Source: Patescibacteria group bacterium (GTDB lineage: Bacteria; Patescibacteriota; Patescibacteriia; Buchananbacterales; GWA2-38-13). From it: 64,000 nucleotides of DNA. Positions 131 to 48,460 of the stretch are shown here, piece after piece; within the stretch, counting starts at the first letter, position 1, and each line of letters begins with the position of its first letter. Under the pieces are notes generated by a model. It was given only the letters and a program-made list of their open reading frames with translations. It was not told the DNA's origin and searched no databases. The stretch covers positions 2,309 to 66,308 of the forward strand of contig JAQTQO010000003.1 of NCBI GenBank assembly GCA_028712155.1, given 5' to 3'. The translations under genes and the position numbers were made by a program.

Positions 131-700
131 TCATGTTTTTCCATAGGTTGGATTCAACGTATCATAAATTTTTCGCAGCGCAGACCGGCCGCGTTTGAGG
201 CGAACGCCGACCGTGGAGGCCGGAATCCGCAAAATTTCGGCGATCTCCCGGTAGTCGAGCTCTTCAAAGTAATACAGCACCAGCGGTTCGCGGTACTTGG
301 GCGGCAGGCGCTGCAAGCTGGAATGCAGCGTGGTTTTCAGATCGTTGGCGATGACGTCGCGGTCCGCGTGGTCCCGGGAGTGCGGATGGGGGAACAGTAC
401 GTCGGGGTCGAAGAAAGGGATCGGTTCCCGCCGCTTCCGTTTGATGGTATTTATGAACTCATTGTGGGCGATGCGGTACAGCCAGGGCGAAAATTTGCGC
501 TTCGGATCGAAGCTGCGGATATTAACGTAGGCTTTCAGGAAGGCTTCCTGTACCGTGTCCTCGGCGTCTTCGTAGCCAAACAGAAAGCGCCGCGCGTACC
601 GCAGCATTTTGGATTCATACCGTTCGACCAGAATTCCGAATGCCTGCCCGTCACCCCGCTGCACCTGGATGGCGATGTCTTCATCGGTACGCTCAGCCAT
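131..700 (-). CDS. RNA polymerase sigma factor, ECF subfamily (sigma-70 family)
   Basis: Region 2 motif 'DAEDTVQEAFLKAY' and region 4 HTH 'LDYREIAEILRIPASTVGVRLKRGR'; ORF runs to 721, with the Met at 700 ('MAERTDEDIA') the typical ECF start. Confidence 0.85.
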   Translation of the reverse strand: MAERTDEDIAIQVQRGDGQAFGILVERYESKMLRYARRFLFGYEDAEDTVQEAFLKAYVNIRSFDPKRKFSPWLYRIAHNEFINTIKRKRREPIPFFDPDVLFPHPHSRDHADRDVIANDLKTTLHSSLQRLPPKYREPLVLYYFEELDYREIAEILRIPASTVGVRLKRGRSALRKIYDTLNPTYGKT

Positions 701-799
701 AGCCTTTAATAGTACTACCATACGCAGCGGAATTTATTTCATACCCAGGCCTCCCGCGCACTCACGTCATCACGGCCGCTTGGGACCGTTCGCGCGTAC

Positions 800-828
800 T
801 TGTGGGGATTTTTCTCCTCCGCTATACT
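800..828 (+). promoter_or_regulatory. sigma70-like promoter of the hydrogenase operon (TTGTGG-N17-TATACT)
   Basis: -35 at 800-805, -10 'tatact' at 823-828, about 55 nt upstream of the ferredoxin ATG. Confidence 0.4.
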
Positions 829-885
829 AATGAGGAGAGAACATTATATACCCGCACCCCGGTCGGGTCAATTGATTCCCGTCAT

Positions 886-1161
886 ATGGCAGAACAAAAA
901 ATCGCAAAAATTGTGGTCGATCGCAACCTGTGCATCGGTGCGGCCACGTGCGTGGTGACCGCCGGCACGGTGTTCGAACTTGACGGCGAAAATAAAGCCG
1001 TCATTTTGCAGCAGGGTGGTACGAAAAATTCCGGTCCTGCCAAACGAGCCGTTCTTAAAGACGCGGCGGTGGCGGATGCAACGATCCTGGCGGCGGCGCA
1101 ATCGTGCCCCACGCGCGCGATTTTCCTCTATGATGCAGCGGAAAAACAAATCTTTCCCTAA
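886..1161 (+). CDS. small ferredoxin (single Fe-S cluster, Pyrococcus-type CxxAxxC...CP)
   Basis: 'DRNLCIGAATCV...AQSCPTRAI' cluster-binding pattern; ATG at 886; first gene of the hydrogenase operon. Confidence 0.65.
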   Translation: MAEQKIAKIVVDRNLCIGAATCVVTAGTVFELDGENKAVILQQGGTKNSGPAKRAVLKDAAVADATILAAAQSCPTRAIFLYDAAEKQIFP

Positions 1162-2404
1162 GTCGAAGACCACCGAGGTGAAATATTTGATCATCGGCGG
1201 CGGGGTGGCCGGAACCACAGCCGCCGAAACCATCCGGGAGCGCGACGCTACCGGCAGTATTACGATCGTTTCCGACGAACCTTACCGGCTGTACTCCCGC
1301 ATCATGCTGTCCAAACCGAATTTTTTCCTTGGAAAAATTCCGTTCGAGCAGATCTGGTTAAAATCTGAGTCGTGGTACACCGACAAGAGAATTACGTTCA
1401 TGCCTGGCACGCGGGCCCAGACGCTTGACGCAGAAAATCAGCAGGTGACGCTCAGTAACGGGATGGTGTTCCGGTATGAAAAATTACTGCTCGCGGTGGG
1501 CGTGCTGCCCAATGCATGGCAAGTTCCGGGGTCAGACCGCCGGGGGGTCAATCAGCTGCGCACTCTGGACGATGCGAAAGTCATTATCCAGGGGATTAAG
1601 CGGGTGAAACACGCGGTTTGTATCGGCAGCGGGTTTACGACCTTTGAGATGTGCGACATGCTGCGGATGGCCGGCGTGGACGTCACGGTGGTGATGCGCG
1701 AGCCGCACTACTGGGATCCGCTATTGGATTCTGTATCAGGCGGCTTGATTGAACAGGCGATGGTGAAAGGCGGCGTGAAAATCGTCCGGCAGGCGCTGGT
1801 TAAAACGGTGGACGGCGGCAGGAGCGTCACTGGCGTCACTTTGGAAAGCGGCGAAAAGATTCCTTGCAGCATGGTCATCGCCGGCGTGGGAACGTACGTG
1901 CCGTGCGATTGGGTGAAAACAGGCGGGGTCGCGGTGAACCGCGGCATTTTAGCCAATGAATATCTCGAGACGAATTTCTCCAATATTTGGACTGCGGGAG
2001 ACTGTGCCGAGTTCAACGACCTTATTCTTGAAGAGCAGTTGGTGCTGGGGAATTGGGCCAATAGCCGGCAGCAGGGAGCCTTGGCCGGCGGCAATATGGT
2101 CGGCGGGCGCACGGCGTTCAAGATGGTATCATTTTATACCGCCAATGGATTCGATATAACGATCGCGTTTGTCGGTGACGTCCGGGCCAAAGACCGGCAG
2201 GTGATCGTGCGGGGCAGTTCCGCCCAGGGATTCTACATCCGTCTGATCGTTGACGATCATGATGAGATTGCCGGCGCGACGTTCATCAATAAGACGCCGG
2301 AGATGGCGCCGGTGTCCAAGCTGATCGAGACCAACGTGAAGGTATCGCCGATCCGGCCGCAGCTGGAAGATCCGGCGTTCGATTTACACAAGCTCGTATC
2401 CTGA
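1130..2404 (+). CDS. FAD-dependent NAD(P)H:ferredoxin oxidoreductase (pyridine nucleotide-disulfide oxidoreductase, AIF/putidaredoxin-reductase-like)
   Basis: FAD Rossmann 'KYLIIGGGVAGTTAAE', ferredoxin-reductase motif 'EPYRLYSRIMLSK', second dinucleotide site 'CIGSGFTTFE', 'TAGDCAEF'; alternative start GTG 1178 just before the Rossmann fold. Confidence 0.8.
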   Translation: MMQRKNKSFPKSKTTEVKYLIIGGGVAGTTAAETIRERDATGSITIVSDEPYRLYSRIMLSKPNFFLGKIPFEQIWLKSESWYTDKRITFMPGTRAQTLDAENQQVTLSNGMVFRYEKLLLAVGVLPNAWQVPGSDRRGVNQLRTLDDAKVIIQGIKRVKHAVCIGSGFTTFEMCDMLRMAGVDVTVVMREPHYWDPLLDSVSGGLIEQAMVKGGVKIVRQALVKTVDGGRSVTGVTLESGEKIPCSMVIAGVGTYVPCDWVKTGGVAVNRGILANEYLETNFSNIWTAGDCAEFNDLILEEQLVLGNWANSRQQGALAGGNMVGGRTAFKMVSFYTANGFDITIAFVGDVRAKDRQVIVRGSSAQGFYIRLIVDDHDEIAGATFINKTPEMAPVSKLIETNVKVSPIRPQLEDPAFDLHKLVS

Positions 2405-2409
2405 GATCT

Positions 2410-2982
2410 ATGCCGATCAAAAAACTCCGCGCGCGACCGAAGAAAGCCAAGACGGCGGTTTTGAAGAAAACTGCCGCGGTCCCGGTACCGGCCGAGGAAC
2501 AAAAGATCCGGATCGGCTGGTTTACCTTTTCGTGCAGCGAGGATAATACGGTGGTGATGACCGAGATCATGAACGACCACTGGCAGGAATGGAAAAAAAT
2601 GTTTGATTTCCGCCACGTCCGGATGCTGAAATCCCACAATATTCTCGACGCCCTTGATATCGTTTTCATCGAAGGGGCGATCGCCTCGGAAGAGCAGGCC
2701 CAAAAGCTTAAGGAAATCCGGCAGCGGTCCAAGCTGCTGGTGGCGGTTGGCGCGTGCGCCTGCGTCGGTCTGCCGGCCGGGCAGCGCAACACGTTTACGG
2801 AAATTCAGCGCGCCAAAATCGAACATCTGGTGGCGAAATTTGCCGCCCTGCCGAAAGTGCTGAAAGTGGCGGAGGTCGTTTCCGTGGACGCGGAAGTTCC
2901 GGGCTGCCCGATGGACCCGGCGAATTTTTTGCGCGTGGTCAACCAGGCCGTCGCTCGGGTGCGGGCGGAGAGGCGGTCATAA
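2410..2982 (+). CDS. [NiFe]-hydrogenase small subunit, minimal HoxY/HydD-like (proximal 4Fe-4S cluster only)
   Basis: Four Cys in 'FSCSED', 'GACACVG', 'PGCP'; lies immediately 5' of the large subunit; basic 30-aa N-terminal extension. Confidence 0.75.
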   Translation: MPIKKLRARPKKAKTAVLKKTAAVPVPAEEQKIRIGWFTFSCSEDNTVVMTEIMNDHWQEWKKMFDFRHVRMLKSHNILDALDIVFIEGAIASEEQAQKLKEIRQRSKLLVAVGACACVGLPAGQRNTFTEIQRAKIEHLVAKFAALPKVLKVAEVVSVDAEVPGCPMDPANFLRVVNQAVARVRAERRS

Positions 2983-2995
2983 CCCATCGTGTGCT

Positions 2996-4291
2996 ATGCA
3001 TACCGTCGATCTTGATTTCACCATCGACCGGGTGACGAAAGTGGAAGGCTCGGCGTCGCTGGACGTGAAGGTGCGCGGCGGCAAAGTGCAGGAAGTCCGC
3101 TTCAAGATTACCGAGTACAAGCGGTTCTTCACCCAGGCGATGCTGGGCAAGCCGATCGCGGCGTTGCCGCAGCTTTTGTCGCGCATTTGCGGCACGTGTT
3201 CCAACGCTCACCTCCTCTGCTCGATCGAAGCGTGCGAACATGCGCTCGGGGTGGTGCCGTCGCCGCAGACGATGCTGCTGCGCATGCTGACGATGTACGG
3301 TCTCATGATCCGGGACCACGCGCTCCATTTGTATTTGTTTTCCATGCCGGATATCTTCGGCAAGGATGCATTTCTGGATCTTGATGAATCCAACCCGGAA
3401 CAGCATCAGATGCTGCACGACGGCTTCGAGGTCAAGGCGGCGGGCAATTACCTCGCGACGTTGGTCGCCGGCCGTTCCGTACACGCGCTGTATCCGGCCA
3501 TCGGCGGTCACCTGCGCACTCCCGATGCCGAAGGTATCGCGGAGGCGGTTAAGAAATTAACGGCGGTGCGGCCGGCGGTCCTGCGCCTGATCGACATTTT
3601 TGCGCAGGCACCGTTCCATTTTGACCGGCAGACCAATTTCATGGCGCTGGTTCCCGAGCGGTACGGTTTTCTTAAGGGCGTGATCGTCACCAGCCGGGGC
3701 GATCGCATCCAGGAGGAGCAGTTCCGGCGGCACCTTGAGCGCGTTGTGCTCCCGTACTCCCAGGCGTCGGCGTACAAGCACCAGGCATCGTCGTACATGG
3801 TCGGGTCACTTGCGCGGATTAACCTCGCGAGCGATCACCTGCATCCCAAAACCAAAGAGTCGGCCGCACACGTATTGAAACACTTCCCATCGACGGATGT
3901 CTTTCACAACAATTTGGCCCAGGCGATTGAGATACTCCATGCGGTTGACGATGCTATCGAGATGCTTACGACGCACCAGTTCAAACCGGAACCGGTACCG
4001 AAACTGGTCTACCGCGAGGCCGTCGGGGTCGGCGTTATCGAAGCGCCCCGCGGTACGCTCTACCATGAGGTTGGAATCGGCGCCGACGGCGTGGTCACCC
4101 ACGGAGAAATCGTGGTCCCGACGGGGCAAAACCAGATCAATATCGAAGAGGACGTTCACCGGCTGGTCCAGGATCTTCTGCCGCATGTCACGCGCGAAAT
4201 ACTGACGCATGAAATCGAAAAGCTCATCCGGGCATACGATCCGTGCATGAGCTGCGCTTCCCACTTCTTGAAGGTGAACTGGGACGCGTGA
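2996..4291 (+). CDS. [NiFe]-hydrogenase large (catalytic) subunit, group 3-like
   Basis: N-terminal 'RICGTCSNAH' (RxCGxCxxxH) and C-terminal 'DPCMSCASH' (DPCxxCxxH) Ni-Fe ligand motifs. Confidence 0.92.
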   Translation: MHTVDLDFTIDRVTKVEGSASLDVKVRGGKVQEVRFKITEYKRFFTQAMLGKPIAALPQLLSRICGTCSNAHLLCSIEACEHALGVVPSPQTMLLRMLTMYGLMIRDHALHLYLFSMPDIFGKDAFLDLDESNPEQHQMLHDGFEVKAAGNYLATLVAGRSVHALYPAIGGHLRTPDAEGIAEAVKKLTAVRPAVLRLIDIFAQAPFHFDRQTNFMALVPERYGFLKGVIVTSRGDRIQEEQFRRHLERVVLPYSQASAYKHQASSYMVGSLARINLASDHLHPKTKESAAHVLKHFPSTDVFHNNLAQAIEILHAVDDAIEMLTTHQFKPEPVPKLVYREAVGVGVIEAPRGTLYHEVGIGADGVVTHGEIVVPTGQNQINIEEDVHRLVQDLLPHVTREILTHEIEKLIRAYDPCMSCASHFLKVNWDA

Positions 4292-4324
4292 TAAATTTGC
4301 TTACCGGGCCGGTCGCCACATTTG

Positions 4325-4362
4325 AAACTCTGACGCCTCACGGAGGTGTCAGAGTTTATCTT
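4325..4362 (+). terminator. intrinsic terminator after the hydrogenase operon
   Basis: Perfect 10-bp stem 'aaactctgac'/'gtcagagttt' extended by cctc/gagg, followed by 'ttatctt'. Confidence 0.6.
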
Positions 4363-4506
4363 GGGCGGTGGAGGGCGAATGAACAAAGTGTGTTACCTTT
4401 CTGATATTTATCGTATGTTTATAGTACGGGAAAAAGCTGGTAAAATAACCGCAGAGTGGTTATCGCCATGTATGGCCGTAGTGCCGGGCGGGCGAAGTCA
4501 ATTATC

Positions 4507-5088
4507 ATGACGCATCAGTGCATGGAGCTGGATGAACGCACAATTATCCGCAGGATTCAGGCCGGAGATTTTGATGATTTTCATCATTTGTATGACGCCT
4601 ACGCGCGGCGGATTTACCTGTTCATCTACTACCGGACCTACCACAAGGAAACGGCGGAAGACTTGACCAGTGAGGCGTTCCTCAAGGCGTTCCGGGGGAT
4701 CGGGAGTTTTGATGCCGCCAAAGGAACGTTCGGCGCGTGGCTCTACCGGATCGCCCGCAACGTGGTCATTGACCACTACCGCACCGCGCACCCGACCGTT
4801 GATATGGAAAGCATATGGGACCTCTCAACCGACGATGACGTCGCGCAGGAGGTGGATGTCCGGCAGGATCTGGACCGCGTGCGAGGGTATCTTAAAGATT
4901 TAAAACCCGAGCAGCGCTCCGTGATCATCATGCGCGTATGGGACGAGCTGAGCTACCAGGAAATCGCTGACATCACGGGCAAGTCGGTTCCGAGCTTGAA
5001 AATGATGTTTTCGCGTGCGATCGCGCAATTGCGCCGGGATCTGCCGCTGGGGATGTTACTTTTGGCGCTGTGGCGCGTTTATCATTAG
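4507..5088 (+). CDS. RNA polymerase sigma factor, ECF subfamily
   Basis: 'AEDLTSEAFLKAFRGIGSFD', 'FGAWLYRIARNVVIDHYR', region 4 'LSYQEIADITGKSVPSLKMMFSRAIAQLR'; ORF opens at GTG 4456, start uncertain. Confidence 0.85.
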   Translation: MTHQCMELDERTIIRRIQAGDFDDFHHLYDAYARRIYLFIYYRTYHKETAEDLTSEAFLKAFRGIGSFDAAKGTFGAWLYRIARNVVIDHYRTAHPTVDMESIWDLSTDDDVAQEVDVRQDLDRVRGYLKDLKPEQRSVIIMRVWDELSYQEIADITGKSVPSLKMMFSRAIAQLRRDLPLGMLLLALWRVYH

Positions 5089-5091
5089 TGT

Positions 5092-6636
5092 ATGGAACAA
5101 AAAATCCAAAAAATTCTCCGCGACCTCTACAAGATTGACGGCACGCTGCGGCAGCACGATGGAGAGCTGCACGAAATCGTTGCCCGACTGATCGCGTCTC
5201 GGCCGGATGCGGTCCTCGACCAGCGTTTTCACGATGCGCTGCGGCAAACCATCGCCCAGGCGCTGCGCGCCCGATCTTCACCGGCGGTTGCGAGTACTCG
5301 CCAGACAAACTATTTCTTAACCTATATGAAAAAAGCATTGTACGCACTCATCCCGGCTTCGGTCGGTGCACTGGCCGTGCTGTTGGCCGTCGTGTACGGC
5401 GGCAAGATGAAGATTTTGTCGCCGACTGCGCCGGGCGCAGCGTCGCCGGTCTTTGAACAGCATCAGAGCATCATCGCCCGGGGTAACGAAGCGTTCGGTA
5501 AATTGGTTGCCAGCAACTCCGTTTCCCAAGCGGAACAATCCGGTACGTCCGTTGGCAAAGCGGTCGGTTTGGGCGGCGGCGGCAGCGCCCCGATGGCGGT
5601 TTCCGCCGACAGCGGCAAACGGTCGTCTATGGTGGCGCCGGTTCCCGGCTTTGCTCCCGAGTGGACGGCCTACCACTATGTGTACCAGGGGGATCCGTTG
5701 ATGTTGGCTGACGACACGGTTGAAGTATTGCGACGGACCAAGGGTGCGGGAAATGGCGCCGCGGTAGCAGCCGTGCTGCAGGGTATGAATTTCGGTGTGG
5801 CCGACCTCAAGAGTTTTACGAGCCTGCAGGTACAGTCGTTTTCGCTGCGCGAGGATAAAGAGTACGGCTATACCGTTGACGTGAACATTCCCGAAGGGAC
5901 CGTCGGCATCGGCCAAAACTACGAGCGTTGGCCCTATCCGAAGTGCAGCGATGAAGCGTGCTACCAGAACTCCCGCCTCAAGGAGTCGGATATGCTCTCC
6001 GACACGGCAGCCATCCAGATCGCGGATACGTTCGTCCGCGAACACAATTTGGCGCAAAGCGACTACGGTACACCGGAAATTGTGGACGATTGGCGCGTGC
6101 TGTACGCCCAAACTACGGTCAAGACAGACTTTTATTTCCCGGAAGCGGTCAATGTCCTGTACCCGCTGACGGTGAACGGCAAACCGGTGTATGATGACAG
6201 CGGCCGGAAGGTCGGCATGAACATCACCGTTGATGTGCGGTTCAAGCGGGTGTCCGGCGCGTACAACATCGCCACGCAGACGTACGAGAGCTCCAGCTAC
6301 GCCGCCGAAAAGAACGCCGATGCCATTCTCAAGATTTTGGGGCAGGGAGGGCAGTATGCCGGGTACGACGCCCAAGCGCCAAAGATCGTTGACGTGACGG
6401 TGGGTGCACCCCAGACGGCTTACCTGAAGATGTGGCAGTACAACGAGAAGGGAAGTAATGAGCTGCTGGTGCCGGCGTTGGTTTTTCCCATCGCCAAGTC
6501 ACCGGAGCCGTACTTCTGGCGCAAAGCCGTGGTGATCCCGCTGGCCTCTGAACTCTTGCAGCAAACGAATTCCGGCGGGCCCATCCGGACATTGGAGAAA
6601 AGCGTGCCGTCGGTCGTCGTGCCGCCGTCCCAATAA
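5092..6636 (+). CDS. membrane protein, putative anti-sigma factor partner (cytoplasmic N-terminus, one TM, large extracytoplasmic domain)
   Basis: Start 3 nt after the ECF sigma stop; TM 'ALYALIPASVGALAVLLAVVYGG'; no recognisable catalytic motif; anti-sigma role inferred from adjacency only. Confidence 0.45.
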   Translation: MEQKIQKILRDLYKIDGTLRQHDGELHEIVARLIASRPDAVLDQRFHDALRQTIAQALRARSSPAVASTRQTNYFLTYMKKALYALIPASVGALAVLLAVVYGGKMKILSPTAPGAASPVFEQHQSIIARGNEAFGKLVASNSVSQAEQSGTSVGKAVGLGGGGSAPMAVSADSGKRSSMVAPVPGFAPEWTAYHYVYQGDPLMLADDTVEVLRRTKGAGNGAAVAAVLQGMNFGVADLKSFTSLQVQSFSLREDKEYGYTVDVNIPEGTVGIGQNYERWPYPKCSDEACYQNSRLKESDMLSDTAAIQIADTFVREHNLAQSDYGTPEIVDDWRVLYAQTTVKTDFYFPEAVNVLYPLTVNGKPVYDDSGRKVGMNITVDVRFKRVSGAYNIATQTYESSSYAAEKNADAILKILGQGGQYAGYDAQAPKIVDVTVGAPQTAYLKMWQYNEKGSNELLVPALVFPIAKSPEPYFWRKAVVIPLASELLQQTNSGGPIRTLEKSVPSVVVPPSQ

Positions 6637-6755
6637 ATAATGATCCCGGTAAACTCGGGACAGGTACAAAAATTTATGCTCATCCGGGGAACGATTCCCG
6701 CATGAGTAGCGCGTCCCGGTTCTCCAAAGACCGGGACGCGTAACCGTAATAACGT

Positions 6756-7028
6756 ATGGCCAAAAAGTCATTTACGGCCGATGAGGCGAAAGCGGTCGGC
6801 GGAAAACTCGGCATCGACTGGTCCAAGTTCGACGTTGAGCAGTTCCGGATGGGCATGGATGTGGAGCTCGAGCATGGCCTGCGCGATCCCCACACCAACG
6901 TCACCAATGACGACCCGCTGACGACGGGAAAAATTGCGCTTGCCCACCTGAACGAGTTTCCGGATTATTACACGCGGCTGGATACAATGGAAAAAGAGGG
7001 GGACGCATTCTGGAAAGGAAGGGCGTGA
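6756..7028 (+). CDS. small conserved hypothetical protein (DUF5661-like 'ELEHG...AHLNEFPDYY')
   Basis: 90-aa ORF with its own downstream terminator; family assignment from memory only. Confidence 0.4.
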   Translation: MAKKSFTADEAKAVGGKLGIDWSKFDVEQFRMGMDVELEHGLRDPHTNVTNDDPLTTGKIALAHLNEFPDYYTRLDTMEKEGDAFWKGRA

Positions 7029-7059
7029 GGGCAACAGAATATTTTTGTGTTTACGGCAG

Positions 7060-7100
7060 CGGCGCGGCAACTGCCGCGCCGTTTGATTTGACTTTTTCGC
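7060..7100 (+). terminator. intrinsic terminator
   Basis: 9-bp GC stem 'cggcgcggc'/'gccgcgccg', loop 'aact', then T-rich 'tttgatttgacttttt'. Confidence 0.6.
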
Positions 7101-7184
7101 TTTCCTCCCGCAAGATTTCGATACGGAAGCTGCGCGGAGCAGTTTTCAACGCAGGCACATTGGCATTTTTTGGAGGACGACGTC

Positions 7185-8249
7185 ATGGCGCCAGAAGGAG
7201 CGTCTACGTACAAAGCCGCCGGGGTTGACCTCGATGCGGCCGACCGGTTCGAAGACATGATCAAGGAGCGGGTCGCGGCGACGTGGCCCGATACTGGGGG
7301 AGAGATCGGCGGGTTCGCCGGCGGTGGTCCCATTCCGCCCGGGGCCACTCACCTCAAGGGTTCCACCGACGGCACCGGCACCAAGGCGATTCTTGCCGCG
7401 CTGCTGGGGAAGTTCGACGGGCTGGGTCAGGATGCGGTCGCCATGTCCGCGGTGGACATGTACGTGTCCGGCAATCGTCCGACGTACCTGCTGGACACGC
7501 TGGACGTGGGCCACCTGGATCCCGATCTCCACATCGCCGTCATCGAGAGCGTGATCCGCGGCTGCCAGCGTGCCGGCTGCAAGCTCATCGGCGGCGAGAC
7601 CGCCGAGCTGCCCGACCTGTTCCGACACCCGTGGATGGTGAACGTCAACGCGCACGCCATCGGCTTTCCCGCCGAGGAGCTGAAGTTCGGGACAGTCAAG
7701 TCGGGCCAGGCCGTGTACGGCTGGGCGTCCCACGGGCCGGGATCGAACGGCTTTTCCCTGCTGCGCAAGGTCTTCAAGCTCAAGGACGAGCCGGCCCGGG
7801 CGCGTCGGCGACTCTTGCGCGAGTACGATGAGCTCGGTACGCTGCCGTTGCACTCGGCCCTGCTGGCGCCCACGGAGATCTGGATTCAGGAGATCGAGCG
7901 GCAGCGCAAGGCCGGCGTCCGGTTCTGTGGCCACGCACACATCACCGGTTCCGGCATGCCGGGCAACATTCCGCGCATCCTGCCTCCCGACTGCAAGGTC
8001 GTCATCGACCGCAGCCGGTGGGGACGTCCGCTCATCTTCCGCCTGACCCAGGAGATGGGCCACGTGAGCGAGGCCGAGATGGATCGCGTCTTCAACCAGG
8101 GAGTCCAGGTCGTTTCCATCGTGTCCCAAGATAGTCCATCGGTGGTGCAGGATCGTTTCGCACACATGATCGGAACGGTCGAGTCTCGCACCGACGACGA
8201 GCCGCAGGTCGTGTTCACCGGAAAACACAGCGACGGCGAGATCTTCTAG
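7185..8249 (+). CDS. purM: phosphoribosylformylglycinamidine cyclo-ligase (AIR synthetase)
   Basis: 'YKAAGVDLDAA', 'GGFAGG', 'GSTDGTGTK', 'GGETAELP' PurM-family motifs; SD GGAGG 8 nt before ATG 7185; markedly GC-rich (about 68-70%). Confidence 0.85.
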   Translation: MAPEGASTYKAAGVDLDAADRFEDMIKERVAATWPDTGGEIGGFAGGGPIPPGATHLKGSTDGTGTKAILAALLGKFDGLGQDAVAMSAVDMYVSGNRPTYLLDTLDVGHLDPDLHIAVIESVIRGCQRAGCKLIGGETAELPDLFRHPWMVNVNAHAIGFPAEELKFGTVKSGQAVYGWASHGPGSNGFSLLRKVFKLKDEPARARRRLLREYDELGTLPLHSALLAPTEIWIQEIERQRKAGVRFCGHAHITGSGMPGNIPRILPPDCKVVIDRSRWGRPLIFRLTQEMGHVSEAEMDRVFNQGVQVVSIVSQDSPSVVQDRFAHMIGTVESRTDDEPQVVFTGKHSDGEIF

Positions 8250-8350: not shown

Positions 8351-8734
8351 CTATGCTCTGACCTGCTTGAGAATTTCTGTTACCGCGCGGAAAGTATGTT
8401 CGGGATCTGCGGCCGGAGGAACCCCAATGATAAGCACTTCCTTGATGTGGCCGAGTTTTTGGAGATAGCGGAGGTTTGCGTAGGCGTCGAAATCGTGCAG
8501 CGTGACGTTCGGCGCGGGGACGAATTTTTTCAAATCGGAAAAAACCGTGACCCGGTCAACGCCGACGACGGTATCCAATACCACCAGCCGTTCCGGTACG
8601 GCCCACTCTTCGTTGGGGTCAACCACCTGAAATTGCACTGTGGGAAACTGCTGCCGAAGTTTGGGCAGCAGTTGCAGCGGCAGCGCGTCGCCGGGAAGAT
8701 CGGGGTTGCCAAAGACGAATATTTCCATGATCAA
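8351..8734 (-). CDS. hydrogenase maturation endopeptidase (HycI/FrhD-type)
   Basis: 'FVFGNPDLPGDALP' (cf. HycI 'CVGNSMMGDDGAGP'), 'LVVLDTVVG', 'TLHDFD', 'EVLIIGVPP' match the HycI layout of Ni-ligand Asp/His; 127 aa. Confidence 0.6.
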   Translation of the reverse strand: MIMEIFVFGNPDLPGDALPLQLLPKLRQQFPTVQFQVVDPNEEWAVPERLVVLDTVVGVDRVTVFSDLKKFVPAPNVTLHDFDAYANLRYLQKLGHIKEVLIIGVPPAADPEHTFRAVTEILKQVRA

Positions 8735-8763: not shown

Positions 8764-10041
8764 TCAACGGAACCTAAAGAGGAAGGGGAATATGAACGTG
8801 ATAAAGGCGGTCCACACCGCATATACCGGTAGATAACCGCTGATCCAGCGGTAGGTGGCGGTGAGTTCCGCATTCCGCCGCCAGTCCTTTAAAAAGCAGC
8901 GCAGCAGGCCGGCGGCGTTTCCGAAGATCAGCAGGTTGGCGCCGAGCACCGCGATGCGGTTGGGCGTAAAACCGTAACTGCCCAGGCGGAAGAGAATGGC
9001 ACTTAATCCTACGACATCCACCGCCAATCCCACCACCAGCAAGCCGAGCGTGACGAGGTCGTGGATGGTTCGGCGTTGCCGTTCGGTGAGCGCAAGAATA
9101 CTGATGGTGAGAACCGCCAGCATCATGACATTGAAGATGATCAAAAATTCACGGTCGGTATACGGGCTTTTCCCGTTCACGCCCATTATCACCAAGTACG
9201 CGACCAGTGTTACCAGTACGAGCGGGGAAAAAATTTTTGCGATGACGGGTAGGATTCTGGCGGCGGAGCGTGAGCGAACCCATGCGAGGTGGGCGCCGAC
9301 GATAGGCACCGCCGCGGCACCGTAGATCACCACCCAGTGTTCATACCAGGTAGCAATGTCAATTTGAATCGCAGAAAATAATCCGATCGTGAGTACGGTG
9401 AGCATGACCCCGGCGCTCATGAGGACTCCTGCATAGATGGCGTATTCCCCGTTGAATTTCAGGTACTCGACGCGTGCCGCGGCACCTGCGGACCAACGGC
9501 CAGTGAACGCCAAACCGGCGACGGTCCACAGCAAGAGCGGGAGGTGGAGGTATGTGAGCATGAGGGTATCCGACCTCGGTACGTCCGGCAGCAGGTTGAC
9601 ATAGACAGCTGAGACAACGAAAACGCCACCGGCAATCGCGAGGGTGCGGCGATCAACGGGGCGGGTCATGGCGAAGTAGACGGCCAGAGCGGGAAAAATA
9701 ATCAGACCGGCGTTGCGCAGGTAAAAATTTTCCGGTTGCGCGAGCTGGAGGAAATCAGGCAGTTTGGCGATCGTCCCGGCAAAAATCGCCAGCAGCAAAA
9801 CCAGCCATCCGAGGGCCCAACCGTACGGCCCGGACACGGCTGATGTTTGAAGACCAGCCGGACGATCATACGCGAGCCGGATTTCCCAGTACTTCACGAG
9901 CGGTGAACCGGGTTGCGTTTTCACCAGGGTTGCGTAGGCTGCGGTAAACTCCTTGGGGTTTTGGCGGAAAAGCGTTTCGAGTTTCGCCGCCTCTTCCCAC
10001 TTGTTCGCTTCCGGTGTTTCCTGCGGTTGGTTGGTTGGCAT
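8764..10041 (-). CDS. polytopic integral membrane protein (DUF4153-like), function unknown
   Basis: At least 10 predicted TM helices; co-directional with, and 29 nt from, the maturation protease gene. Confidence 0.6.
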   Translation of the reverse strand: MPTNQPQETPEANKWEEAAKLETLFRQNPKEFTAAYATLVKTQPGSPLVKYWEIRLAYDRPAGLQTSAVSGPYGWALGWLVLLLAIFAGTIAKLPDFLQLAQPENFYLRNAGLIIFPALAVYFAMTRPVDRRTLAIAGGVFVVSAVYVNLLPDVPRSDTLMLTYLHLPLLLWTVAGLAFTGRWSAGAAARVEYLKFNGEYAIYAGVLMSAGVMLTVLTIGLFSAIQIDIATWYEHWVVIYGAAAVPIVGAHLAWVRSRSAARILPVIAKIFSPLVLVTLVAYLVIMGVNGKSPYTDREFLIIFNVMMLAVLTISILALTERQRRTIHDLVTLGLLVVGLAVDVVGLSAILFRLGSYGFTPNRIAVLGANLLIFGNAAGLLRCFLKDWRRNAELTATYRWISGYLPVYAVWTAFITFIFPFLFRFR

Positions 10042-10064: not shown

Positions 10065-10796
10065 TTAGAGCGTGAGATTAGCCAGTTGCAGGTGCCGTAT
10101 GGTGTACTTGCGAAGCGCGGCGGCCTGGGCAGGGGTGATTACCTCGCACGGAACATTCCAATGCAGCGTGATGATATTGCCAGGTTCGAGCTGTTCGAGG
10201 TCGGGGGGCGCATCCAGCGCGCGGATAACCGTTTTTTTCTCCGGCGCAGAGAGCGACAGTTTCCCGTTCTCGTAGCGTAACGGTTCGGACATCAGGGTGA
10301 TGTTTGGCCCCGCGACATGCGCGACGGTGCCCCAGCTGATGCGGCAGTTGTCCATGCTCTCGATAGTGTGCTCGCGCTCAACGTGTCCGGTGCGCAGCCA
10401 CACGTCGAGCACATGGAACGAGTGATGGGGGAGCGCGCCGAGGCGGATTTTATCCCCCAGACGGTCGAATTCTTTCCCCTTCATCCGGTCTTTGAGCCGG
10501 ACGCCGTCGCGGAGATGTTCAAAAAAAGACTGCCGCGAAACGTTTTCGAGCAGATCGTTGCCGATCCAGTACGCTTCCACCACGCGTTCGTCGAACGGAT
10601 CCGGTATCCGGTTGGATTGGGCGATCCGCTGCAGGTAGGGGTAGAGAGTGGAAAATTGTTCCAGCATTCCGCGCAAGCCCGGATCACTCGCGTCTGCGCG
10701 CAAATACTGCAGCATCTCCCGATTGCGGTCCGGTCCGCAGTAGTGCAATCGGTTGGGGCCAAACGAGTAGCGGCTGCAGCGCAAAACGCCGTCCAT
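10065..10796 (-). CDS. hypothetical protein
   Basis: 243-aa ORF with SD 'AAAGG' before its ATG; tightly packed between the DMT transporter and the membrane protein in a minus-strand operon. Confidence 0.55.
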   Translation of the reverse strand: MDGVLRCSRYSFGPNRLHYCGPDRNREMLQYLRADASDPGLRGMLEQFSTLYPYLQRIAQSNRIPDPFDERVVEAYWIGNDLLENVSRQSFFEHLRDGVRLKDRMKGKEFDRLGDKIRLGALPHHSFHVLDVWLRTGHVEREHTIESMDNCRISWGTVAHVAGPNITLMSEPLRYENGKLSLSAPEKKTVIRALDAPPDLEQLEPGNIITLHWNVPCEVITPAQAAALRKYTIRHLQLANLTL

Positions 10797-10802
10797 ACCT
10801 TT

Positions 10803-11774
10803 TCAAACCGCGTGTGTCATTCGGTCCGATTGGATTTTAATTTGCGGGTGGCGGGCAAACCGGACTATCAGCAGCGCACCGACGGTAAACAGAAGCGCGC
10901 TTTGCACTTCGCGCACGCTGATGGCATGGGTGATGAAAATTGCCGACCAGACGTTGGTGACCAGCGTCGCCGGCACCAGGAGCGTCGCGACGTACGTGGC
11001 CGGCGCATATTTGAGCGCGGTGTACCAGGTCAGCACATAGCTGGCCAGAAGCCCGCCGGCCAAAAGCACCCAGCCCCATTGCACCGCGGTCAATTGCAGC
11101 ATCGCGGACGCCTCTCCTTGCCAGCATACGACGGTAAACAGGAGAACGGAGCCGATTACCATGCGGGCGGTCGCAACGGTGAGCGCGGACACGTCGCGGA
11201 GGGCAATCTTGGCGATGATATTTTCCACCGCCCACAACATCGTCGCGAGCATGATCATCAATTCGCCCGCGTTATAACGGAATCCGGAAAAACCGCCTAC
11301 CAGCAGGTTGGCCGCAAAAATTGCGGCAATGCCAAACCATTGGAATCGGGTCGTCTTTTCGCGCAGAAGCGGGATTGCCAGCAGCAGCACCCATAGCACG
11401 AGCGTCTTGTGGATGAGGGCGGCGTTGAGGGCCGAGGTCTGCGTCAGACCGGTGAAGTAGAGCGCGAACGGCAAGCCGCCGCCGACCACCCCCACCGTGA
11501 GCAGCACAACCATCTGGCGTATATTCAGGCGGATAATCTCCCGCCATTGTTTGGCGGCAAAAATGAGGCCGACCAGGAAAATCGCAACCGTAGCATTTTT
11601 GAGCGTCGTGAAGAGCACCGGGCCCTGGACAGCGGTGACGGCAAATTTATTGAAAAAGTTTGCCGTTCCGGAAATGATCGCTGTCCCCAGCGCCAGGATT
11701 GTGGCGTATCTCCAACGGTTCTGTACCATAGCGGTTGCTTGAAAAAAATTCGCGTCCGGGTGGAATGCTTGCAT
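10803..11774 (-). CDS. DMT-family transporter (EamA-like, 10 TM)
   Basis: Two EamA-type 5-TM repeats; start ambiguous (TTG 11801, ATG 11774 or 11729). Confidence 0.75.
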   Translation of the reverse strand: MQAFHPDANFFQATAMVQNRWRYATILALGTAIISGTANFFNKFAVTAVQGPVLFTTLKNATVAIFLVGLIFAAKQWREIIRLNIRQMVVLLTVGVVGGGLPFALYFTGLTQTSALNAALIHKTLVLWVLLLAIPLLREKTTRFQWFGIAAIFAANLLVGGFSGFRYNAGELMIMLATMLWAVENIIAKIALRDVSALTVATARMVIGSVLLFTVVCWQGEASAMLQLTAVQWGWVLLAGGLLASYVLTWYTALKYAPATYVATLLVPATLVTNVWSAIFITHAISVREVQSALLFTVGALLIVRFARHPQIKIQSDRMTHAV

Positions 11775-11902
11775 TATAAGGTCAGTTTGGCCAATACACA
11801 AGTCGGACGGGATTGCCGCTGGGAGTCACCCATCTTCAAGAGTGTCGTGAGGTAATCCGCTCGCCGGATTATTTCGTGGTAGACCGGGATACAATTTTAC
11901 CG

Positions 11903-19428: not shown

Positions 19429-19905
19429 ATGGAAATTTCCACCCTTGTAAATCCACGGCAAGTCATTTTGCTCACCGCCCGCGCCAAGGGCCGCGACAAT
19501 GTCATGGCACTGGCTTGGCATACGCCGGTGAGCTACGATCCCCCGATGTATGCGGTCGCCATCTACCGCGGATGGTTCACCTGCGGTTTGGTGCGGGCGT
19601 CAAAAGTGTTTGTCGTCAATTTCATGCCGAAGAGTTCCGCACCGGCGGTGTTGATATGCGGCAGAAAATCAGGAAAGAAAATGGATAAGTTTGCCGCCAG
19701 CGGGCTGGATAAAGAGGAGGCGGAAAAGGTGAAAGCTCCTCGCATCAAACAGGCGCTCGGGTATTTGGAATGCCGAACCGTGCGTTCGGTAAACGTCGGC
19801 GATCACGTGGTATTTATCGCCAAGGTGCTGAAGGCCAGACTCAAGAGCAAAGGCAAACGTCTTTTTCATCTCGGCGGCGATCGTTTTACCACGACCACTC
19901 GGTAA
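19429..19905 (+). CDS. flavin reductase-like FMN-binding domain protein
   Basis: 'VILLTARAKGRDNVMALAWHTPVSYDPPMYAVAI' is typical of the flavin reductase family. Confidence 0.7.
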   Translation: MEISTLVNPRQVILLTARAKGRDNVMALAWHTPVSYDPPMYAVAIYRGWFTCGLVRASKVFVVNFMPKSSAPAVLICGRKSGKKMDKFAASGLDKEEAEKVKAPRIKQALGYLECRTVRSVNVGDHVVFIAKVLKARLKSKGKRLFHLGGDRFTTTTR

Positions 19906-22938: not shown

Positions 22939-23412
22939 ATGTTCGGTATGGATTTTTGGGAGGTTGTAGAACTACGCCACTGCGTGCGGTCGTTTGATGC
23001 CGGCCGCGAAGTTACCGATGCCCTTGTTGCCAAACTGCTGGATGCGGCCCGGCATGCGCCGTCAGCGGGTGGAATTTATCCGACGGAGTTTGTCGTCGTG
23101 CGGGATGTTGCGGTGAAAACGCAGCTGGCGGCCGCGGCGCGCAATCAGGAATTTTTGGCTGACGCACCGGTGGTCATCGTCGTGGTCTCCGATGCAGGCA
23201 TGAGCGCGGCCAAATACGGCGAGCGCGGAAGAAATCTCTATGCGGTGCAAGACGCGGCAGCCGCAACGGAAAACCTGTTTCTGGCGGCGACCGCATCGGG
23301 TTTGGGCGCATGCTGGGTCGGCGCTTTCGAAGAAAGCGAAGTGGCCAAGGTGCTGCAGCTTGATGAGGCGAAGCGTCCCCTGGCGATCATTCCCGTCGGT
23401 TATCCGCGGTAG
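22939..23412 (+). CDS. nitroreductase family protein
   Basis: 'RHCVRSFD', 'PSAGGIYP', 'AAATENLFLAATASGLGACWVG'. Confidence 0.8.
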   Translation: MFGMDFWEVVELRHCVRSFDAGREVTDALVAKLLDAARHAPSAGGIYPTEFVVVRDVAVKTQLAAAARNQEFLADAPVVIVVVSDAGMSAAKYGERGRNLYAVQDAAAATENLFLAATASGLGACWVGAFEESEVAKVLQLDEAKRPLAIIPVGYPR

Positions 23413-30695: not shown

Positions 30696-30724
30696 TTGAC
30701 GTCACTTCCGTTCCATGGTAATAC
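30696..30724 (+). promoter_or_regulatory. sigma70-like promoter TTGACG-N17-TAATAC
   Basis: -35 at 30696-30701, -10 at 30719-30724, upstream of the Cys-rich gene. Confidence 0.45.
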
Positions 30725-30782
30725 GGGAACGCGTTTTTTGAACCTTGTCATTTTGCTCGGTAAACCCGGTAGCGGAGGAGCC

Positions 30783-39165: not shown

Positions 39166-39675
39166 ATGCCAGAGTTACCTCAACTCAAAGAACTCTTCGA
39201 AGCCACCAAGCGCCTGGTGGCGGAAAAAAAGCTCGATCTTTCCTCGGATGAAGATTTGAGCCTGGCGGTCATGAATCTCGTGAGCATCGAGGAGCACCTC
39301 GTATTCTCGGGGTCAAAGACCAGCGCGCGTGAATACTACGACCTCATCGGCCCCGTCCGTGAGCTTCGCAAAACCTACCTCAAGCAGTTGCTGCCGGATT
39401 ACGAAGGCGAGGTGTGGTGCATCTGCAAGCATTTGCTGGCCGCTTCGATGCGGCTGATCGAAGTCGGCACCAAGCGCCAGGAGAAAGATCCCCAGGCGGC
39501 GCAGGCTTGTTTTCAGCACGCGTTCACCCTCTATTCGTATTTCTGGACGCTGAAACTCAAGATGGCAACGGGCAAGACGTTGGGCGGAAAAACTACGGCA
39601 CCCCAAGCGCCAACCCCCAAGCAAAAAGCCGTCGAAGAATTCCTGGCGAAACTGGTAGATTGCTGCGGAGAGTAA
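39166..39675 (+). CDS. hypothetical protein
   Basis: 169-aa ORF wedged between ccdA and the thioredoxin-like gene (start 1 nt after its stop), implying operon membership. Confidence 0.5.
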   Translation: MPELPQLKELFEATKRLVAEKKLDLSSDEDLSLAVMNLVSIEEHLVFSGSKTSAREYYDLIGPVRELRKTYLKQLLPDYEGEVWCICKHLLAASMRLIEVGTKRQEKDPQAAQACFQHAFTLYSYFWTLKLKMATGKTLGGKTTAPQAPTPKQKAVEEFLAKLVDCCGE

Positions 39676-40059: not shown

Positions 40060-40070
40060 TCCATCGTCTT

Positions 40071-41462: not shown

Positions 41463-41569
41463 CGCGCCGGCGCGCGGTTTTCGCCGGCGATGGCTTTTTG
41501 GTGACGGGAAAGTCGGGACGAACACGGCGGAGTGCCGTAAACCGAGGATTAGCTGACTCGGGTAGATTA

Positions 41570-47798: not shown

Positions 47799-47890
47799 CG
47801 TCACGGCAAATGAGCCCGAGGGGCGTCGCAAATTCAGGGTTTGACTCAGTTGCCACCGGCTTCGTTTCGGGGTATATTTTGAGCAGTACT

Positions 47891-48403: not shown

Positions 48404-48460
48404 GCGGGGACGGGCGGCATTCATGTTTCCTTAATCCGAAGGTGGTACTTTTACTGTCGT

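Follow-up and report, generated by a model that had tools for sequence, protein, structure and literature searches.

The window analysed here is a stretch of 64,000 nucleotides. Positions 886 to 4291 of its forward strand hold a real operon of four genes, which encode a ferredoxin (Fd), a flavoprotein (FdR), and the small (SSU) and large (LSU) subunits of a [NiFe]-hydrogenase. The open reading frames lie exactly where a first-pass annotation had placed them, and Pfam and NCBIfam family matches bear out the four identities that it had assigned. The source is a MAG of the Patescibacteria (CPR), an ultrasmall bacterium.

Fd (886–1161; 91 residues) is a single-cluster ferredoxin matching Fer4_15 (E=3e-11) and Fer4_13 (E=4e-9). 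FdR (1130 or 1178 to 2404) is a flavoprotein that depends on FAD and resembles NAD(P)H ferredoxin reductases of the PdR/BphA4/AorC/AIF type; it matches Pyr_redox_2 (E=8e-48), Pyr_redox, and Reductase_C (E=1e-6). SSU (2410–2982; 190 residues) has Oxidored_q6 (E=2e-19) as its sole Pfam match, and LSU (2996–4291; 431 residues) matches NiFeSe_Hases (E=2e-25). The genes are tightly packed: FdR and SSU are separated by 5 nt, and SSU and LSU by 13 nt. The Fd-FdR junction depends on the start codon. ATG 1130, the public gene call, creates a 32-nt overlap; GTG 1178, the better start as judged from homologues, leaves a 16-nt gap and yields the family-typical N-terminus MKYLIIGGG.

Pfam scans of the operon neighbours and of 30 further open reading frames (12–53 kb) found no HydB/HydG, HoxF/HoxU, or Hyp proteins, in accord with the earlier claim that canonical diaphorases are absent. 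Three genes on the reverse strand probably encode accessory or maturation components: a HycI/HybD-like hydrogenase maturation endopeptidase (8351–8734; 127 residues), matched weakly by HycI in Pfam (E=6.5e-4) and by hupD in NCBIfam (E=2e-4); a DUF6390 protein (10065–10796; 243 residues; E=2e-61); and an EamA-family (DMT) membrane transporter (10803–11801; 10803–11729 in the public gene call), the latter two identified also through synteny and, for EamA, through Pfam matches in homologous loci.

A hyd2 hydrogenase with a truncated small subunit

LSU carries the L1 and L2 motifs (RICGTCSNAH and DPCMSCASH), with an eight-residue C-terminal tail after L2. Across 120 homologues of 67–100% identity, neither motif varies, nor does any of the four Ni-Fe cysteines. 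Comparison with the PDB ranks group 3b structures first (about 195 bits), then 3c (140) and 3d (127). In NCBIfam, ShyA matches at 245 bits and HydA at 204, neither of which reaches its cut-off (245 versus 700 for the equivalog). LSU is related to group 3b, and the locus is a member of a known CPR clade, the group-3b-related hydrogenases named hyd2 by Jaffe et al. (2020; BMC Biol 18:69, PMC7304191).

That report described a truncated small subunit, missing beta and gamma subunits, and a PF07992 flavoprotein neighbour. The present locus shows no essential difference. Shared are the CPR host, the truncated SSU (a core of about 160 residues), the absence of HydB/HydG-like genes, the PF07992 neighbour, the Fe-S protein family found near a subset of hyd2 loci, and a HypC-related family in the neighbourhood. 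The suggestion that such wiring is uncommon or undescribed is not supported: LSU has more than 5600 homologues, the best 120 of which are CPR proteins about 70% identical to it, and the gene cluster was already recognized as hyd2. The partners had in that sense been described in part, but the function was graded "uncertain", and the redox partner likewise (PMC7304191). Four features taken up below go beyond that account: fusions of FdR to SSU, an Fd that is dedicated to the system, SSU ligands that depart from the canonical set, and the linkage with DUF6390 and EamA.

The group 3b enzymes of Pyrococcus furiosus (SHI HydABGD, PDB 9nez and 9e15) and Thermococcus kodakarensis (Hyh, 5yxy) give the best matches to LSU and to the SSU N-domain, and are cytoplasmic and pyridine-nucleotide-linked, as the hyd2 enzyme would be. 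They differ in possessing HydB (Fe-S) and HydG (FAD, AsrB-like) subunits, and in a small subunit whose CxxC is unaltered and whose C-terminal domain binds further clusters; moreover, the locus scores far under the group's equivalog cut-offs.

SSU consists of the N-terminal, proximal-cluster domain alone; the domain for medial and distal clusters has been lost. Taken earlier to be HoxY-like, it resembles HoxY less (35 bits) than it does the HydD N-domain of group 3b (48 bits, its nearest PDB match). The four cysteines noted in the first-pass annotation are present here (C42, C115, C117, and C165), but across 53 distinct hyd2 SSUs invariance is limited to C42, C115, and C165; 14 of the 53 have just three cysteines in total. 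The canonical xCEGC motif has become C(C/S)ED(N/S), here within SCSEDN, and thereby lacks the second cysteine of CxxC. The basic N-terminal extension also exists (residues 1–30), but it is peculiar to this sequence; its position is that of the linker in FdR-SSU fusion proteins.

Does such a protein still hold a cluster? The unusual SSU ligands, together with the failure to recognise hypA-F among the scanned open reading frames of the window, provide grounds for viewing the enzyme as an inactive or sensory relic with neither a functional Ni-Fe site nor a functional cluster. We regard this as highly improbable. Clusters with aspartate or tandem-cysteine ligation function elsewhere, the Ni-Fe cysteines are invariant, and purifying conservation is strong over thousands of sequences.

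Conservation of the accessory genes also speaks against decay. In nearly all of 49 homologous loci the maturation endopeptidase directly follows LSU on the opposite strand, and its L050 homologue matches HycI; here an insertion of about 4 kb has displaced it from LSU. DUF6390 accompanies hyd2 more constantly than does FdR. In its AF2 model (pLDDT 86) the N-terminal domain is helical, and the C-terminal one, beginning at the invariant Cys151, is a HypC-like beta-barrel. The best Foldseek match is HypC (2z1c_B), and the hhalign and Pfam bridges to HypC are weak; the modelled fold makes DUF6390 a candidate maturation factor. The EamA gene conservedly adjoins that for DUF6390, and the two form single open reading frames in L010, L012, and P0440.

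The flavoprotein and ferredoxin as probable redox partners

FdR contains the motif EPYRLYSRIMLSK and, as judged from 120 homologues, lacks a conserved redox-active cysteine. Its best NCBIfam matches are PadH (220 bits), HcaD, and AndAa, and its best PDB matches are 3lxd, 3fg2, BphA4, AorC (8c0z_E), and PdR. FdR lies immediately 5' of SSU in at least 14 distinct loci and is fused to it in frame in at least six homologues (L004, L012, L043, P0155, P0168, and P0200), through linkers as short as about 7–10 residues. When a fusion protein was modelled with AF2, its SSU domain was not usable. A neighbor-joining tree places the hydrogenase-adjacent FdRs in one clade, apart from those without a hydrogenase. 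Other hyd2-type SSUs are fused to different NAD(P)H flavoproteins, TrxR-like (P0244) or NuoF-like (P0245), each followed by LSU. From these gene arrangements, FdR probably docks on SSU.

Fd shows a similar attachment. Its cysteine motif, C15-x2-A-x2-C21...C73-P, has three rather than four cysteines, is of the [3Fe-4S] type, and is common to all 11 aligned homologues (CxxAxxC...CP). An insertion of about 18 residues (QQGGTKNSGPAKRAVLKDAAV) occurs in this alignment only in the hydrogenase-linked homologues. In a metagenome census FdR lay downstream of each of 25 close Fd homologues, and SSU-LSU followed in all 12 whose contigs were sufficiently long. Of the 14 distinct FdR-linked loci, 10 have Fd upstream of FdR, and the stop and start codons often overlap by 4 nt. 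Even where a hydrogenase is absent, more distant homologues of Fd are paired with FdR, which marks Fd as the cognate carrier of FdR. Finally, one locus (L049) has the order Fd-SSU-LSU and no FdR, an arrangement that supports a direct step from Fd to SSU.

Together, the fusions, the single FdR clade, the co-occurrence counts, and L049 uphold the earlier proposal that the Fd/FdR pair is the redox partner of the hydrogenase. The converse would be that Fd and FdR are coincidental neighbours. As an NAD(P)H:ferredoxin system they would then have a housekeeping role, in Fe-S cluster assembly for example, and the two-subunit hydrogenase beside them would be independent of ferredoxin and have its true partner at another locus. 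Related Fd-FdR pairs do occur in NifS-NifU-like clusters that lack a hydrogenase, and FdR is not universal in the hyd2 clade: in about half of the loci, mostly those with LSU identity of 65% or less, the surrounding 7 kb contain none. (Several of these carry instead genes for a divergent 2-oxoacid:ferredoxin oxidoreductase and an ADP-forming acetyl-CoA synthetase.) Nevertheless, in-frame fusions in at least six lineages come close to refuting coincidence, and the monophyly of hydrogenase-linked FdRs, the 25/25 and 12/12 co-occurrence, and the tight or overlapping gene spacing also oppose it, making it very doubtful.

Possible routes for electrons

How might the four proteins cooperate? The gene content and its conservation lead us to favour, with a little more than even confidence, a minimal cytoplasmic hyd2 [NiFe]-hydrogenase in which a dedicated Fd/FdR pair links the enzyme to pyridine nucleotides, replacing HydB/HydG. 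Electrons would pass reversibly between H2 and the Ni-Fe site of LSU; from there to the one Fe-S cluster that the truncated SSU would hold; to the 3Fe-type cluster of Fd; to the FAD of FdR; and to NAD(P)+. Fd would substitute for the missing medial and distal clusters, and FdR would be physically docked on SSU, so that the four proteins are proposed to work as one complex. We infer the cofactor order, the cluster types, and the nucleotide (NADH or NADPH) in this scheme. Its physiological direction may be H2 evolution, disposing of fermentative reductant, or H2 uptake, making NAD(P)H and reduced Fd.

Known systems offer partial parallels. In class I three-component chains (putidaredoxin reductase and putidaredoxin with P450cam; BphA4 and BphA3 with the dioxygenase), an FAD reductase related to FdR by family (122–125 bits) and a small one-cluster ferredoxin shuttle single electrons to a terminal metalloenzyme, and the gene order is likewise Fd-FdR. 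There, however, the ferredoxin is [2Fe-2S] rather than a three-cysteine Fer4_13/15 protein; here the terminal enzyme is a hydrogenase, and the reductase is often fused to its Fe-S subunit. HoxY, of about 190 residues, carries the proximal cluster only. Group 3d HoxFUYH (Hydrogenophilus thermoluteolus, PDB 5xf9) has in it a small subunit of similar size, and a flavoprotein module that exchanges electrons with NAD(H). It differs in its lower similarity (127 bits for LSU, 35 for SSU), in HoxF/HoxU, which are absent from the window, and in using FMN in a NuoF-type fold versus FAD in a PdR-type fold; a rare hyd2 relative, the P0245 fusion, nonetheless joins the NuoF-like module to a hyd2-type SSU.

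In tungsten aldehyde oxidoreductase AorABC (Aromatoleum aromaticum, PDB 8c0z; PMC10413684) and phenylglyoxylate:NAD+ oxidoreductase PadEFGHI, an FdR-like FAD subunit (AorC, 123 bits; PadH, 220 bits) permanently caps an Fe-S electron wire and reduces NAD+. The catalytic modules differ (W-pterin or TPP versus Ni-Fe), and a polyferredoxin takes the place of the single-cluster Fd. By analogy, AorC is a precedent for an FdR-like permanent subunit: its FAD lies 9.5 Å from a [4Fe-4S] cluster of the ferredoxin-like partner and reduces NAD+ (PMC10413684).

The linear path from FAD through Fd to SSU, as first drawn, is supported in outline by the fusions, the co-occurrence, and L049, but strict linearity is not established. 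The short linkers, together with a fused locus (L004) that has no Fd gene upstream or nearby, allow direct transfer from FAD to cluster. Because L004 has no such gene there, and because an unrelated 55-residue Cys-rich open reading frame occupies the Fd position in L001, Fd may be dispensable for this transfer. FdR could then be a permanent third subunit on SSU, its FAD exchanging electrons directly with the SSU cluster, and Fd a branching link to the cellular ferredoxin pool (2-oxoacid oxidoreductase, Fe-S assembly). The TrxR-like-SSU fusion, which has no extra Fe-S domain, fits this arrangement. So do the hydrogenase-free Fd-FdR pairs beside NifS/NifU-like genes and the order NifS-NifU-Fd-FdR-SSU-LSU in L023, which suggest that Fd serves other acceptors too. 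Yet the close Fd homologues reside in hydrogenase operons only (12/12) and carry the hydrogenase-specific insertion, L049 joins Fd to SSU-LSU where FdR is absent, and enzymes of the FdR family normally pass electrons to a small Fe-S protein (PdR to Pdx, BphA4 to BphA3). We hold direct wiring to be a tentative, distinctly less probable alternative to the dedicated Fd/FdR chain.

The joint encoding of a hydrogenase, an NAD(P)H flavoprotein, and a ferredoxin also brings to mind a three-substrate enzyme, in which the FdR flavin confurcates or bifurcates electrons among H2, NAD(P)H, and Fd, such that NAD(P)H and reduced Fd together drive H2 formation. Ferredoxin-generating OFOR genes lie beside related loci. 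Clusters of the [3Fe-4S] type, to which the three-cysteine Fd motif points, are usually not low-potential, however, and a second flavin or extra cluster is absent. Bifurcating NiFe-ABCSL enzymes are known (PMC12318220), and 7t2r is among the LSU matches, but PdR/AIF-type reductases fall outside the four known bifurcating flavoprotein families, namely Etf, Bfu, Hdr, and Nfn (PMC12318220), and we judge this mode very unlikely.

A hydrogenase operon of the hyd2 clade

Four open reading frames lie densely packed on the forward strand at 886-4291. The first (886-1161) encodes a 91-residue ferredoxin, Fd, that matches Pfam Fer4_15 (E=3e-11) and also Fer4_13; the second, ending at 2404, a ferredoxin-reductase-like flavoprotein, FdR (Pyr_redox_2, E=8e-48; Pyr_redox; Reductase_C); the third (2410-2982) a 190-residue small subunit, SSU, with Oxidored_q6 as its sole Pfam domain; and the fourth (2996-4291) a 431-residue large subunit, LSU (PF00374, 90 bits). 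Only 5 nt separate FdR from SSU, and 13 nt SSU from LSU. In the public gene call FdR begins at ATG 1130, giving a 32-nt overlap with the Fd gene; an alternative start, GTG 1178, yields the N-terminus MKYLIIGGG, typical of the family. Scans for promoters and terminators (600-4700) found sites no more numerous than in shuffled sequence, so it is gene spacing alone from which we infer that the four genes are co-transcribed. The first-pass annotation had placed and identified these four genes correctly, and a Pfam profile search assigned the flavoprotein to the Pyr_redox_2/Reductase_C type rather than the NADH_4Fe-4S type.

The LSU contains both Ni-Fe cysteine motifs of a catalytically competent [NiFe] large subunit, RICGTCSNAH and DPCMSCASH. 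Among 120 homologues the former is identical in all, and the latter reads DPC[MIL]SC[AG][AST]H in 118. A C-terminal tail of eight residues extends past the final His (seven to nine residues in 108 of the 120), and a HycI-like protease, with weak HMM matches, is kept in the locus. Pfam scans of the operon neighbours and 30 ORFs at 12-53 kb recognised no hypA-F genes.

In NCBIfam the LSU scores best against two alpha subunits of group 3b, ShyA at 245 bits and HydA at 204 bits, far under the equivalog cut-offs (for ShyA, 245 versus 700). Among solved structures, group 3b enzymes score highest (about 195 bits; 5yxy, 9nez, 9e15), followed by the bifurcating NiFe enzyme 7t2r (144), group 3c 5odc (140) and, as the weakest of these, group 3d HoxFUYH 5xf9 (127). 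Electron-input partners of neither group 3b nor group 3d were found with it. HydB (Fe-S, AsrA-like) and HydG (FAD/NAD(P), AsrB-like) were absent from the operon, the scanned window ORFs and the called genes of the homologous loci L001-L006; the scanned window ORFs included no Complex1_51K, NADH_4Fe-4S or Fer2 protein, and hence neither HoxF (NuoF-like, FMN) nor HoxU (NuoG-like) of group 3d. The earlier claim that canonical diaphorases are missing thus held across the operon neighbours and the 30 further ORFs. The SSU also differs: its group 3b counterpart (HydABGD/HyhBGSL) has about 250-260 residues, a C-terminal domain for additional Fe-S clusters and the canonical proximal motif CxxC...C...C, whereas the window protein has a core of about 160 residues and SCSEDN in place of xCEGC.

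Jaffe et al. (2020; PMC7304191) divided the group-3b-related hydrogenases of the CPR into hyd1, which features beta and gamma subunits, and hyd2, a long branch beside 3b. According to these authors, hyd2 small subunits are reduced in length (mean 164 aa); beta and gamma subunits are absent; PF07992 occurs in "some members of fam013", a family from the vicinity of hyd2; a subset of hyd2 has an Fe-S family, fam390, nearby; and a HypC-related family is common to hyd2 and hyd1. Their verdict on hyd2 was that its "function remains uncertain". By its sequence features (CPR origin, a short SSU, no beta or gamma subunit, PF07992 and Fe-S neighbours), the window locus fits this published clade on every point testable here, and is itself one more ordinary member. 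Literature searches found no functional or structural work on hyd2 later than that study; a 2024 Microbiome paper (PMC10811913) presents a model of the canonical 3b enzyme of the CPR, with four subunits, rather than of the hyd2 type.

A Patescibacteria MAG encodes a protein 100% identical to the LSU. Homologues of the LSU number more than 5600 at E<=1e-10, and the enzyme is therefore abundant rather than rare; the best 120 (67-75% identical, from the CPR) include Azambacteria, Sungbacteria, Kerfeldbacteria, WWE3 and Parcubacteria by name. The first-pass annotation, which ran electrons from NAD(P)H through the FAD reductase and ferredoxin to the SSU and Ni-Fe, made a real observation and had the wiring broadly right, but calling it uncommon or undescribed was mistaken on both counts: homologues abound, and hyd2 has been in print since 2020. 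The CPR (Patescibacteria) account for a large part of bacterial diversity, and what is known of their energy and redox metabolism comes almost wholly from genomes. Of their hydrogenase types hyd2 is the commonest, and the 2020 study left its partner and function open.

The small subunit and its probable flavoprotein partner

The nearest structure to the SSU is the N-terminal domain of Pyrococcus furiosus HydD (48 bits; HoxY, 35 bits). PDB alignments did not reach the N-terminal motif, which was read instead from an alignment of representatives of the SSU search. Only C42, C115 and C165 (window numbering) are invariant among 53 distinct hyd2 SSUs, and 14 of the 53 possess no more than three Cys. 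At the first motif 36 have CCED[NS] and 15, including the window protein, CSED[NS], as against xCEGC in canonical 3b-type subunits: the second Cys of CxxC is always lost, and Gly is replaced by Asp in 52 of 53. A description of the SSU as having four Cys, for a proximal cluster only, is thus literally true of the window protein but misleading for the family. The fourth cluster ligand may be Asp45, Ser43 or, in the window protein, C117. The tandem CC of most hyd2 SSUs recalls cluster N2 of the complex I subunit NuoB.

Elsewhere in the window (19429-19905, 22939-23412 and 47810-49979) are genes for a flavin reductase, a nitroreductase, a DJ-1/PfpI protein, an Fe/Mn superoxide dismutase and a cupredoxin-like protein. 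These genes suggest that the host organism probably meets oxygen, a circumstance that bears on the unusual Asp-containing cluster site.

Among PDB entries, FdR most resembles the ferredoxin/rubredoxin reductases 3lxd and 3fg2, BphA4 (1d7y) and PdR (1q1r), and also AorC (8c0z_E), the subunit that carries FAD in a tungsten aldehyde oxidoreductase. Of the NCBIfam models, FdR fits PadH best, which is the FAD subunit of NADH-dependent phenylglyoxylate dehydrogenase. The features are those of the PdR/BphA4/AIF type: a Reductase_C domain; conserved IIGGGVAG (FAD) and IGSGF..E (NAD(P)) motifs; and no redox-active disulfide. The motif Y-x-R-x-x-L-S-K, here EPYRLYSRIMLSK, is conserved among 120 homologues. 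No Cys is invariant in that set, the most conserved one noted, C175, being present in 98 of 120, under the 95% mark. (A CoA-disulfide or sulfur reductase was considered and rejected, given this motif and the lack of any Cys at 95% conservation.) The end of strand beta-2, V-T-L-V-L-R190-E191, with R in 92% and E in 97% of the homologues, is ambiguous for NADH versus NADPH. Gene pairing points to a putative role in reducing the cognate small Fd with NAD(P)H.

A census of 49 loci with LSU homologues, in each of which homologues of the window proteins were mapped, found the SSU-LSU pair to be nearly universal. FdR lies immediately 5' of SSU in at least 14 distinct loci, and is mostly missing where the LSU is no more than about 65% identical. 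Several FdR-less loci (L027, L032, L036, L039 and L048) have genes for a 2-oxoacid:ferredoxin oxidoreductase upstream of SSU, divergent on the opposite strand: an alpha/gamma fusion plus a beta subunit (POR/POR_N; TPP_enzyme_C/PFO_beta_C). ADP-forming acetyl-CoA synthetase is also present at L032 and L048. These genes suggest that the FdR-less subclade has a ferredoxin-fed, fermentative H2-evolving role.

Protein fusions connect the flavoprotein with the SSU. FdR and SSU form a single polypeptide at loci L004, L012 and L043 and in the homologues P0155, P0168 and P0200, with a linker of about 7-10 up to about 40 residues separating the conserved motif at the FdR C-terminus from the initial strand of the SSU; the basic N-terminal extension of the window SSU occupies exactly this linker position. 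A search of 1.84 billion cluster representatives showed two further hyd2-type SSUs fused to other flavoproteins: P0244 (L050:6001-7503) to a thioredoxin-reductase-like Pyr_redox_2 protein, and P0245 to a NuoF-like Complex1_51K plus NADH_4Fe-4S (FMN/[4Fe-4S]) module. LSU and protease follow both. Because of these "Rosetta stone" fusions, a chance neighbourhood of FdR and hydrogenase is very unlikely; the FdRs adjoining hydrogenases also form one clade in a neighbour-joining tree. The fusions are also an argument for placing the flavoprotein on the SSU. An AlphaFold2 model of P0200 (35-row alignment A2) gave pLDDT above 90 for the FdR part and below 50 for the SSU part, because only four alignment rows cover the SSU, and is uninformative on docking.

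The contig of P0244 (L050) is clearly archaeal, encoding ribosomal S27e and S24e, Spt4 and HypC. Typical hyd2 loci L040, L042 and L043 lie on contigs that automated MAG records assign to Methanosarcinales or Gammaproteobacteria. Those assignments probably reflect mis-binning or mislabelling; transfer outside the CPR is the alternative.

Ferredoxin and proposed electron path

The Fd motif, C-I-G-A-A-T-C ... S-C-P, contains three Cys, and its middle Ala is invariant in 11 aligned homologues. Together with the Pfam matches, this places Fd among the Fer4_13/Fer4_15 single-cluster ferredoxins, whose motif (CxxXxxC...CP) has a residue that is not a ligand where CxxCxxC has its middle Cys. Such a three-Cys pattern is that of [3Fe-4S] ferredoxins, and the Fd cluster is putatively of this type.

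Of the 14 distinct FdR-linked loci for which upstream sequence is available, 10 have Fd 5' of FdR, and the two genes often overlap by 4 nt. A metagenome scan with Fd as query collected 80 loci. Homologues at 55% identity or more have FdR next to them in all 25 cases with enough downstream sequence, and SSU/LSU in all 12 with at least 2.2 kb downstream. Those at 43-57% identity lie mostly in NifS-like/NifU-like/Fd/FdR clusters (for example L081, L086, L094, L102 and L124, from the CPR), with hydrogenase in 2 of 20. The FdRs of these hydrogenase-free clusters are the sister clade of the hydrogenase-linked FdRs (neighbour-joining tree), and L023:2728-8308, with the order NifS-NifU-Fd-FdR-SSU-LSU, takes a basal position in the hydrogenase clade. 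Hydrogenase-linked Fds have an insertion of about 18 residues, and L049 has Fd-SSU-LSU without FdR. The pattern suggests that Fd-FdR existed beforehand as a CPR NAD(P)H:ferredoxin module and was then recruited by the hydrogenase, the insertion being gained afterwards. This recruitment pattern supports Fd as cognate carrier of FdR and direct partner of the SSU. (The pair may also serve Fe-S cluster assembly, as in the NifS/NifU-like clusters.)

The best-supported model, drawn from these gene relationships, describes an H2:NAD(P)+ oxidoreductase with FdR docked on the SSU; electrons would pass from Ni-Fe to the SSU cluster, the Fd cluster, FAD and finally NAD(P). Two observations count against Fd as partner: fusion locus L004 has no Fd nearby; and at L003:6078-6245, as at the same position in L001 and L014, the place of Fd 5' of FdR is taken by an unrelated 55-residue Cys-rich ORF (in L003, KCAKC...CCKECC...CEFC, without a Pfam match). 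In the main rival model, FAD and the SSU cluster exchange electrons directly and Fd is a side branch; the restriction of close Fd homologues to hydrogenase operons, the Fd insertion and L049 speak for the path through Fd. A confurcating three-substrate enzyme is possible, with nothing specific in its favour, and PdR-type reductases fall outside the four known bifurcating families.

The path through a docked FdR has a precedent in AorABC (PMC10413684), where an FdR-like FAD subunit forms a permanent cap, its FAD 9.5 Å from the [4Fe-4S] cluster of a ferredoxin-like subunit.

Together, this comparative sequence evidence provides a specific, testable wiring for the uncharacterised hyd2, turning an "uncertain" enzyme into a concrete, clonable hypothesis: a four-protein H2:NAD(P)+ system. 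Its pillars are SSU fusions to three kinds of NAD(P)H flavoprotein, an Fd specific to hydrogenase operons, and the non-canonical cluster site. Confirmation would make it the simplest known [NiFe] hydrogenase with a link to NAD(P), attractive for cofactor-regeneration biocatalysis, and hydrogenase diaphorase modules would be shown to be swappable.

A more elaborate proposal, which we consider rather unlikely as a whole, is that hyd2 is a biochemically undescribed group 3 subgroup, not 3b proper, and a modular "plug-in" enzyme. A single non-canonical SSU cluster (Cys-(Cys/Ser)-Glu-Asp; tandem Cys in most, as in N2 of complex I; three Cys plus Asp/Ser in the window) would exchange electrons directly with the flavin of an NAD(P)H module that can be swapped (FdR-, TrxR- or NuoF-type, each found fused); the 3Fe-type Fd would be a detachable stand-in for a medial cluster or a second exit; and maturation would be aided by a new HypC-like protein, DUF6390, sometimes EamA-fused. 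H2, NAD(P)H and ferredoxin pools would then be equilibrated by the shortest electron chain of any known NAD(P)-linked hydrogenase.

Accessory genes around the operon

A convergent trio on the opposite strand is likewise nearly universal in the 49 loci: the protease (window 8351-8734, reverse strand), DUF6390 (10065-10796, reverse) and an EamA (DMT) transporter (10803-11801, reverse). The window trio is displaced by an insertion on the forward strand (4456-8249), encoding an ECF sigma factor, a 514-residue protein without a Pfam match, DUF5661 and a PurM-like AIRS protein, and by a 425-residue membrane protein (8764-10041, reverse) with no Pfam match. The AIRS/AIRS_C protein (7170-8249) was rejected as HypE, judging by its PurM-like N-terminus and lack of a C-terminal Cys. 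A second ECF sigma factor gene (131-721, reverse) lies upstream of the operon and divergent from it. Two Cys-rich ORFs without a Pfam match lie farther away: 433 residues with 19 Cys (30696-31997, forward) and 664 residues with 17 Cys (39531-41525, reverse).

DUF6390, found in the window, among L001-L049 and in L050 (4581-5081), is tied to the hydrogenase more constantly than FdR. Its 2759 homologues are nearly all from the CPR, and a literature search found no publication on it. In the confident AlphaFold2 model (pLDDT 86, pTM 0.86) the N-domain is helical and the C-domain consists of a barrel and a helix; the best PDB folds for this C-domain are HypC (2z1c_B, 3vys, 3vyu; Foldseek E=0.014, TM 0.66-0.81 over target). 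Invariant Cys151, at the start of the C-domain, aligns weakly with the essential Cys2 of bona fide HypC (hhalign E=0.0017). hhalign against the HypC of L040 gave no signal, the DUF6390 profile matched no PDB sequence, and the window protein has no PF01455 match; an archaeal 166-residue relative matches both DUF6390 and HupF_HypC, below threshold. The modelled fold of DUF6390 hints at an unusual maturation route without demonstrating it.

EamA is conserved beside DUF6390, and the two are fused in single ORFs at L010:8642-10333 and L012:3524-4798 (both reverse strand) and in P0440. This conservation and fusion hint at a membrane-tethered maturation or metal-delivery role for EamA.
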